From Candidatus Undinarchaeota archaeon (lineage in GTDB: Archaea > SpSt-1190), in assembly GCA_964449215.1 (NCBI GenBank), contig CAYVAH010000005.1, forward strand, positions 10,642 through 25,697: a DNA stretch of 15,056 nucleotides, read 5' to 3'. A program made the position numbers and the translations under genes. Below the pieces are notes generated by a model. That model did not search any database and was not told where the DNA came from. It worked only from the letters and a program-made list of their open reading frames with translations. Shown here in pieces: positions 11,326 to 12,801 of the stretch. Each line of letters begins with the position of its first letter. The stretch's first letter is position 1.

Positions 11326-12801
11326 ACTCCAGTTGATCCTGCTGGAGGTCACTGGTATCGGGCTCCGATTAAGCCATGGAAGTCATCCCGCCCTCGGGTG
11401 GGAGGCGGAATGCTCAGTAACACACGGTTAATCTGCCCTGCAGTGGGGGATAATCCCGGGAAACTGAGGCTAATACCCCATAGGTGAGGGGTACTGGAAT
11501 GTCCCTTCACCAAAAGCTTCGGCGCTGCAGGATGAGACCGTGGCCTATCAGGCTGTTGGCGGGGTAAAGGCCCACCAAACCTATGACGGGTACGGGTCGT
11601 GAGAGCGAAAGCCCGGAGTTGGGATCTGAGACAAGACCCCAGGCCCTACGGGGCGCACCAGGCGCGAAACCTTCGCAATGCGCGAAAGCGTGACGAGGGG
11701 AGCCCGAGTGCTTGTTTCCTTAGGAGGCAAGCTTTTCTCGAGCCTAAAAAGCTCGAGGAATAAGGGCTGGGTAAGACCGGTGCCAGCCGCCGCGGTAACA
11801 CCGGCGGCCCAACTGGTGACCATGTTTATTGGGCCTAAAGCGTCCGTAGCCGGGCACGTAGATCCCAAGTGAAATCTGCTGGCTTAACCAGCAGGCGTGC
11901 TTGGGAGACCGCGTGTCTAGGGACCGGAAGAGGTAGGAGGTAGGCCCCGAGTAGGGGTAAAATCCTATAATTCGGGGAGGACCACCGGTGGCGAAGGCGT
12001 CCTACTGGGACGGGTCCGACGGTGAGGGACGAAGGCCAGGGGAGCAAACGGGATTAGATACCCCGGTAGTCCTGGCTGTAAACTATGCGGGCCGGGTTTG
12101 GCAGTTCCTACGGGGGATTGCCGAGCCGAACCGAAGGGGTTAAGCCCGCCGCCTGGGGAGTACGGTCGCAAGACTGAAACTTGAAGGAATTGGCGGGGGG
12201 GCACCACAAGGGGTGAAACCTGCGGTTCAATTGGATTCAACGCCGGAAATCTCACCTGAGTCAACGGCAGGATGAAGGTCAGTCTGAAGGGCTTACCTGA
12301 CAAGCCGAAGGGAGGTGCATGGCCGCCGACAGCTCGTGCCTTGAGGTGTCCGCTTAAGTGCGGCAACGAGCGAGACCCGTGCCTTCAGTTGCTACTCTGC
12401 CCTCCGGGGTGGAGGCACTCTGTAGGGACTGCCCTCGATAAGAGGGAGGAAGGAGCGGGCGACGGTAGGTCAGTATGCCCCTAATACTCAGGGCTACACG
12501 CGGGTTGCAATGGCCGGGACAGTGGGCTGCGATCCCGAGAGGGAAAGCTAATCCCCTAAACCCGGTCCAAGTCCGGATCGAGGGCTGCAACTCGCCCTCG
12601 TGAAGCTGGAATCCCCAGTAATCGGATGTCAACAACGTCCGGTGAATACGTCCCTGCTCCTTGCACACACCGCCCATCAAGCCACCTAAGTAAGCTCTGG
12701 GTGAGGCCGCCTCATTTTGGGGCGAACGAGCCTGGGGTTCGCAAAGGGGGCTAAGTTGTAACAAGGTAGCCGTAGGGGAACCTACGGCTGGATCACCTCC
12801 T
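11326..12801 (+). rRNA. rrs: 16S rRNA, archaeal, complete, no intron
   Basis: Starts ACTCCAGTTGATCCTGCTGGA; contains CCCTACGGGGCGCACCAG, GTGCCAGCCGCCGCGGTAA and ATTAGATACCC; ends with the anti-SD GATCACCTCCT; about 1476 nt. Confidence 0.99.

Follow-up and report, generated by a model that had tools for sequence, protein, structure and literature searches.

The base pair between positions 1405 and 1496 of 16S rRNA (E. coli numbering throughout), near the top of helix 44 (h44), was first proposed from comparative data, and exchanges between C and G at this pair were reportedly tested by Cunningham in 1993; it may be that rare natural covariation of the pair is already old knowledge. In the more recent literature, cited here from the accessible parts of the papers concerned, G1405-C1496 is described as a Watson-Crick pair (10.1101/2023.03.13.532395), helix 45 (h45) is seen to dock on its region (10.1101/2023.03.13.532395; 10.1101/372144), and EF-G touches 1494-1496 via the backbone only (PMC9014874). 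In particular, Noller, Donohue and Gutell (2022) give 1494, 1495 and 1496 as universally conserved in 1961 sequences, a set limited to free-living organisms, with endosymbionts and organelles excluded (PMC9014874), and the adjacent pair, 1404:1497, has also been described as universally conserved (PMC3900107). What is more, ring III of the 4,6-substituted aminoglycosides touches G1405 and C1496 (PMC12391297), in agreement with the original prediction made for this DNA, which had placed the pair in the aminoglycoside pocket. Finally, in M. smegmatis the mutation C1496U alone makes 32 times more hygromycin B necessary (PMC11317432, citing Pfister 2003).

In the window, by which we mean the whole stretch of 15,056 nucleotides that was analysed, this pair is A1405:U1496. 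Compared with E. coli h44, the position is the same, Watson-Crick pairing is kept, and the flanking decoding nucleotides are identical except for A1409:U1491 and G1410:C1490, but the A:U pair is expected to stack more weakly than G1405-C1496 beside the U1406-U1495 mismatch. U1496 is common to the window and the hygromycin B-resistant mutant of M. smegmatis; however, as far as the accessible part of PMC11317432 describes it, the mutant keeps G1405 and therefore has a wobble pair, whereas here pairing is restored by A1405. In other words, the locus is not the hygromycin-type allele, in which U1496 stands opposite an unchanged G1405. With m7G1405, the product of ArmA/Rmt methylation, it shares the nucleotide of the ring III pocket, but the alteration is a base change that leaves N7 free, and the G that would serve as methylation substrate is absent (A12676). 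Neither is the universal C present at 1496 (T12757). Relative to the universal set of PMC9014874, again judged from its accessible part, carriers of A:U are mostly of excluded or then-unsampled kinds. Natural variation of drug-binding rRNA has been described that likewise consists of lineage-specific substitutions of drug-binding residues (10.1101/2024.10.31.621234; 10.1101/2024.11.28.625670); positions 1405 and 1496 are absent from the main texts of these two papers, although their supplements may list them. Literature listings and abstracts yielded no account of A1405:U1496 occurring naturally, and the accessible parts of PMC12641178, PMC7897474, PMC12700985 and 10.1101/2025.10.07.680626 contain nothing further on the pair.

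Judged by its sequence, then, the A:U pair is a well-supported variant of a known site; it is not unique, and it is not a new mechanism. That said, a pair that had long passed for invariant now has natural covariation to its name, and, with uncultured small-genome lineages taken into account, 1496 is no longer strictly universal. We take the primers 1492R and 1391R to be the reverse complements of E. coli positions 1492-1510 and 1391-1407, respectively. PCR products would overwrite 1496, which lies inside the 1492R site, and the variant has therefore likely been little noticed, PCR-derived 16S records being blind to it.

The pair in the window and its gene

The genome to which the window belongs (G000 in the following) comprises 787,686 bases in 49 contigs, is 94.9% complete, and yields a single blastn match for 16S rRNA, that is, one copy; its small size suggests an archaeon of the DPANN type. 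The coordinates of the gene and of the other features are collected in Table 1. The two bases had been assigned to 1405 and 1496 from the start, and both the alignment with E. coli K-12 rrsB and the Rfam model uphold this assignment; namely, the Rfam archaeal SSU model scores 12676 and 12757 as a kept pair in which both letters are changed.

Table 1. Features of the window, with strand and the basis of each assignment
Feature	Position	Strand	Basis
CorA-like transporter	1188-2108		Pfam
Family B DNA polymerase	2987-5302	minus	Pfam
HIT protein	10654-11127		Pfam
16S rRNA gene, full length	11326..12801	+	RF01959, 1488 bits, model positions 1-1478
Helix 44, decoding site otherwise canonical	12671..12762	+	Rfam model and E. 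coli alignment
A at E. coli 1405 (usually G)	12676	+	MAFFT alignment with E. coli K-12 rrsB
U (T12757) at E. coli 1496 (usually C), pairs with 12676	12757	+	Same alignment and Rfam model
Helix 45, GGAA loop intact (1516-1519 = 12777-12780)	12768..12789	+	Rfam model
23S rRNA gene, 5' two thirds, ends at contig end	13077..15056	+	RF02540
23S helix 69, bridge B2a partner	15031..15049	+	Comparison with E. coli

Apart from the exchanged pair, h44 of G000 is canonical at C1400-C1404, U1406, C1407, A1408 (12679), A1492/A1493 (12753-12754), G1494, U1495, G1497 and U1498, and its A1409:U1491 pair is also present in relatives with G:C at 1405:1496. Elsewhere, G530, G926, C1054, C1400, G1401:C1501, A1492, A1493 and A1518/A1519 are unchanged. 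The gene thus has the features of a functional archaeal SSU rRNA, i.e. a full-length match to RF01959, unchanged decoding nucleotides and a Watson-Crick pair at 1405:1496. The comparison shows, at the level of sequence, what should be a 16S rRNA that functions normally, two transitions having turned its 1405:1496 pair from G:C into A:U. RNA runs contained small shares of the window's sequence words only (0.11-0.13).

The original prediction had also held that the complementary A12676/T12757 exchange is not a sequencing error, and independent assemblies bear it out. A JGI contig (L230) is identical to window positions 12368-13065 at 698 of 699 positions and has both A12676 and T12757. Its lone difference, an extra T near 12903, recurs in contigs assembled from three runs, each belonging to a different study, and L230 is therefore not a copy of the window assembly. 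Both bases are also found in L226, a contig that comes from a sister lineage and differs in its spacer, and A1405 in G007, a genome of the same family, whose contig stops before 1496. Among the pieces listed from contigs of four runs, none spans 12676 or 12757; the runs in which about half of the window's words occur are labelled hydrothermal vent metagenomes. Since L230 and the sister lineage carry both bases, sequencing error is very unlikely.

The region upstream of the rRNA genes (284-11127) consists of ordinary flanking genes, of which those outside Table 1 were assigned by reading alone. The 16S-23S spacer is without tRNA and contains a 24-base direct repeat (12809-12832 and 12901-12924), the first 15 bases of which are palindromic; in the sister contig L226 a single copy of the repeat can be recognised. 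Note that, given the extra T of the independent contigs, the window may miss one T near 12903.

Covariation and distribution of the pair

A scan of GTDB for a base other than G at 1405, with any base allowed at 1496, gave at least 120 matches, 7 of them not rRNA and 113 rRNA. Among these 113 rRNA matches listed, 106 are A:U, three A-C, two C-C, one U-C and one U:A, and C:G does not occur; in other words, U1496 accompanies A1405 in 106 of the 109 A1405 rRNAs among the matches listed. A second scan, of metagenomes, required U1496 together with A or G at 1405 and returned carriers only, so that it speaks of presence and not of fixation; 107 of the 108 matches listed there are A1405:U1496 and one is G-U. 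Both patterns require C1404, A1408 and G1497, and therefore miss other sequence contexts; what is more, the matches are related, so their counts do not equal independent events. Relatives were also chosen irrespective of the trait; of their 26 loci, three lack one or both sites, and the other 23 are all Watson-Crick, with G:C in 19 and A:U in four. Mismatched A-C or G-U states make up 4 of 217 matches listed in the two scans together, and this rarity argues that selection keeps the bases paired. These counts show, as far as sequences can, that 1405 and 1496 are held in tight pairing by strong selection, and that base identity is not absolute. They also sustain the earlier view of a nearly invariant h44 pair with a genuine compensatory change.

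Among the rare states (L085, L056, L054, L218 and L092), A-C occurs three times and G-U and U:A once each, U:A in a Thermoplasmataceae MAG. Two of the A-C records, L085 and L056, closely resemble sequences with A:U, and the rare mismatch records may be true intermediates or chimeras.

How frequent are carriers? Recapture of scan matches in the group samples described below was 18 of 30, 5 of 9 and 8 of 20 (the last matched by hand), which suggests, as a rough estimate, about 200 carriers among 185,579 GTDB species genomes. The RefSeq rRNA matches listed in the GTDB scan are five, all from Cardinium, and the remaining matches are metagenome-derived. Several 16S contigs (L030, L066, L070, L075, L112, L135 and others) look foreign to the label of their bin, since bins titled Gammaproteobacteria, Prolixibacteraceae, Campylobacterales or Promethearchaeota contain 3' ends of CPR-like or archaeal type; for this reason the organism titles of scan matches are unreliable.

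For the distribution within groups, a pattern open at both sites was used and 1405 was read, every group being centred on a known carrier. In Iainarchaeota (the phylum of an Iainarchaeum genome), where 83 of 201 genomes gave a match, 82 of 84 matches have A1405, and of the two rows with G1405 one looks bacterial; all 30 loci retrieved have U1496. A1405:U1496 is, in this sense, a near-diagnostic 16S signature for Iainarchaeota. A second small-genome archaeal phylum had A1405 in 9 of 13 matches (12 of 42 genomes), the class of an Amesbacteria genome (CPR) in 7 of 53 (53 of 151 genomes, a count that takes in the unpublished G354 as a G row), the family of Cardinium in 20 of 36 (33 of 48 genomes), an Acidimicrobiales family in 3 of 13 (13 of 21 genomes), and the order of the sponge symbiont AqS2 in 3 of 15 (14 of 19 genomes). 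In G000's own phylum, A1405 occurs in 2 of the 8 genomes scored, out of 17. The original prediction had stated that an A:U pair common in its clade would lower the novelty of the finding; this does not apply to its own phylum, but it does to Iainarchaeota, and the pair recurs elsewhere. Ten carriers that were checked, four of them at chromosome level, gave one 16S match each; some A:U carriers have genomes of 2.7-3.0 Mb.

The neighbouring pair varies as well. In the phylum of G036, another group of small-genome archaea, 1404:1497 is U:A in 10 of 10 matches (L318-L327; 10 of 70 genomes matched), and G020 (L317; 0.5 Mb), the only genome in its class, combines U1404:A1497 with A1405:U1496. Taken together, the U:A state at 1404:1497 and the A:U state at 1405:1496 imply that the top of h44 covaries in several reduced lineages.

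Explanations for the A:U pair

We consider it likely that the A:U pair is an isosteric double transition that became fixed in reduced lineages with a single operon, in which pairing is selected and base identity less so. A:U is isosteric with G:C; it lacks the 2-amino group in the minor groove, and in the major groove O6/N4 become N6/O4. Two transitions, via a G-U or an A-C intermediate, would suffice for the exchange, which should preserve helix shape and backbone and alter nothing but the chemistry of the grooves and the nearest-neighbour stability, the latter by about 1.7 kcal/mol. Namely, the nearest-neighbour stack plus U-U loop comes to -1.3 kcal/mol with A:U vs -3.0 kcal/mol with G:C, the loss being mostly in the U-U loop term. 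Minimum-energy folding of the isolated h44, which does not model ribosomal h44, leaves the 1405:1496 pair unformed. Because of the isostericity, the backbone contacted by EF-G would be unchanged; the guanine 2-amino group would be lost on the side where G1517/A1518 of h45 pack.

Selection, on the reading as a double transition, would hold 1405 and 1496 paired and constrain their identity weakly. With a single rRNA operon, one mutated copy would make up the whole pool and weak selection would easily be overcome, and the double change would be fixed now and then in lineages with reduced genomes and one operon. That said, G:C is kept in many single-operon reduced lineages, namely in 46 of 53 in the CPR class and, in the order of AqS2, in 12 of 15; a single copy would therefore be permissive and not sufficient. 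Indeed, most species by far retain G:C, which is thus normally favoured. Rather than conferring a new function, the swap is probably just tolerated, and an effect on fidelity, drug binding or subunit joining, which the original prediction had thought possible, is not supported; given its fixation across a whole phylum, later adaptation around A:U could have followed. A double mutant at 1405:1496 could probe why G:C is otherwise kept. Plain AT pressure was considered and rejected, the 16S of G000 having 59.6% G+C and its genome 52.5%.

Could the exchange instead be adaptive? Host-dependent cells might weaken the top of h44, at 1404:1497 or at 1405:1496, under selection for the balance between engaged and disengaged h44-h45, 30S maturation or decoding speed. 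Several observations are in line with this: in the accessible parts of the structural work, h45 G1517/A1518 pack on the edge of G1405 (10.1101/2023.03.13.532395) and 1496 lies within the h44-h45 hydrogen-bond network (10.1101/372144); A:U recurs in archaea and several bacterial phyla, with C:G in none and U:A in one of the 113 matches listed; and the adjacent 1404:1497 is swapped in another small-genome phylum, both swaps being present in G020. However, recurrence needs no selection, because two transitions yield A:U; A:U lineages have no common 16S co-change in the columns conserved in E. coli and 16 of 17 archaeal references, KsgA and the GGAA loop are retained, and close sisters differ in state. 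We therefore regard adaptive retuning as unlikely. The same doubt attaches to its widest form, in which the top of h44 (1404:1497 and 1405:1496) would be tunable, convergent swaps to the weaker A:U in ultra-small archaea, CPR and several symbionts shifting h44-h45 docking and decoding or 30S maturation, changing the hygromycin B pocket, and passing unseen under the 1391R/1392R and 1492R primers.

It is very unlikely that A:U was fixed by antibiotics, i.e. through lower binding of hygromycin B or of 4,6-substituted aminoglycosides. The ring III contacts and the 32-fold effect of C1496U cited at the outset speak for this possibility, and on their account a drug side effect is plausible. However, the mutant assayed in M. 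smegmatis has a G-U wobble, not A:U; adenine retains N7, generally known as the atom blocked by ArmA/Rmt methylation; A1408 is unchanged in G000; and between hydrothermal vent metagenomes and the intracellular Cardinium no common drug exposure is evident. The FmrO profile (PF07091, ArmA/Rmt) gave no match in G000, nor in 14 control genomes. If the double transition shifts hygromycin B or aminoglycoside binding at all, the shift would be a by-product.

Another possibility is that the A:U tract of G000 was inherited or recombined from an Iainarchaeota-like 16S, A1405 being present almost throughout Iainarchaeota and the two strands of h44 lying just 81 bases apart. The question can be addressed with a tree computed quickly in IQ-TREE from 45 16S rows, chosen from 126 extracted and enriched in A:U, with the trait columns dropped and the partial L003 excluded. 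This tree needs at least 6 state changes among 44 scored rows. In it, G000 pairs with G007 (SH-aLRT 98) inside a family and class whose other scored members have G:C, far from Iainarchaeota, and A:U therefore arose within the family; as the tree shows, this was after the split from G001 and independently of Iainarchaeota. The grouping of G000 with its G:C family and class, trait columns removed, thus counts against such a transfer; moreover, its h44 and h45 match those of family members and not the h45 signature of Iainarchaeota, and the nearest Iainarchaeota-type loci are less than 79% identical over the region. Transfer is already largely refuted, and we hold it to be highly improbable. In the second small-genome phylum, close sisters in the tree differ in state; L295 (G:C) and L009 (A:U) are sister sequences of this kind.

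Finally, an assembly error, chimera or rRNA pseudogene, conceivable in that the source is a MAG from mixed samples, is scarcely credible: the separate contig L230 and the sister contig L226 have both bases and G007 has A1405, so that independent assembly exists, and the gene is the sole 16S copy, with neither a second, normal copy nor decay, matching the model over its full length and linked to 23S.

Searches for accompanying changes

If the ribosome had adjusted to the A:U pair, changes elsewhere might accompany it. The checks for such co-changes covered 5-10 genomes and a few motifs. In the 16S itself, G000 departs from 11 of the columns that are the same in E. coli and in at least 16 of 17 archaea with G:C (315, 354, 548, 644, 827, 861, 913, 1077, 1251, 1405 and 1496). 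G354C is compensated by C58G (11379/11658), so that C58:G354 becomes G:C in the family, and G548C is compensated at 11355, a G (11355/11813), C36:G548 likewise becoming G:C. The changes at 315, 354, 548 and 913 are family-wide, being present also in G001, which has G:C, whereas the other A:U lineages lack them, as they lack the two conserved-pair swaps as such (C58:G354 and C36:G548). No second 16S change was shared across A:U lineages in columns conserved in E. coli and 16 of the 17 archaeal references. As observations in their own right, A315U (window 11619) and A913G (window 12183) are among these family-wide 16S changes, position 913 presumably belonging to the streptomycin pocket, and U1065A (12329) is common to G000 and a relative from its class.

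Turning to proteins, loss of KsgA was not found, and its co-loss is rejected, the gene being retained in 17 of 17 genomes of G000's phylum. The original prediction had called for inspection of uS12 and the release factor, and neither yielded a linked change. The PNSA loop of uS12 has an N to H replacement in the class members G000, G007, G001 and G013 (loci L300-L303), but over ten genomes it does not track A:U: it is present in the G:C genomes G001 and G013 and absent from the A:U genomes G041, G278 and G037. In aRF1 of G000, the NIKS, YxCxxxF and GGQ motifs are intact (five genomes compared). Loss of diphthamide is likewise rejected, Dph2 having been found in 5 of 5 genomes tested; the Dph2 match of G000 is weaker and lies in two stretches of one frame.

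In 23S rRNA, compared in the 7 of 17 genomes of the phylum that matched, H69 of G000 has U1911, A1912, A1913, C1914, U1915 and A1919 as in E. coli, and its G1916 and G1918 are also found in the G:C relative G001. The changes G1835:C1905 to U:A (14975/15030), G1840:C1902 to C:G (14980/15027) and A1916G occur in 6 of the 7 matched genomes, and a phylum member of 3.6 Mb keeps the usual bases at 1835:1905, 1840:1902 and 1916. Being common to G:C relatives, these H68/H69 changes are rejected as co-changes.

A minor observation concerns the aRF1 gene of the Iainarchaeum-labelled genome G041 (L336:356-1801), which has a mini-intein-like insert right after the catalytic GGQ. The insert starts with C and ends with HN before S, and it matches the Pfam Intein_splicing family with an E-value of 4e-7, below the curated cut-off.
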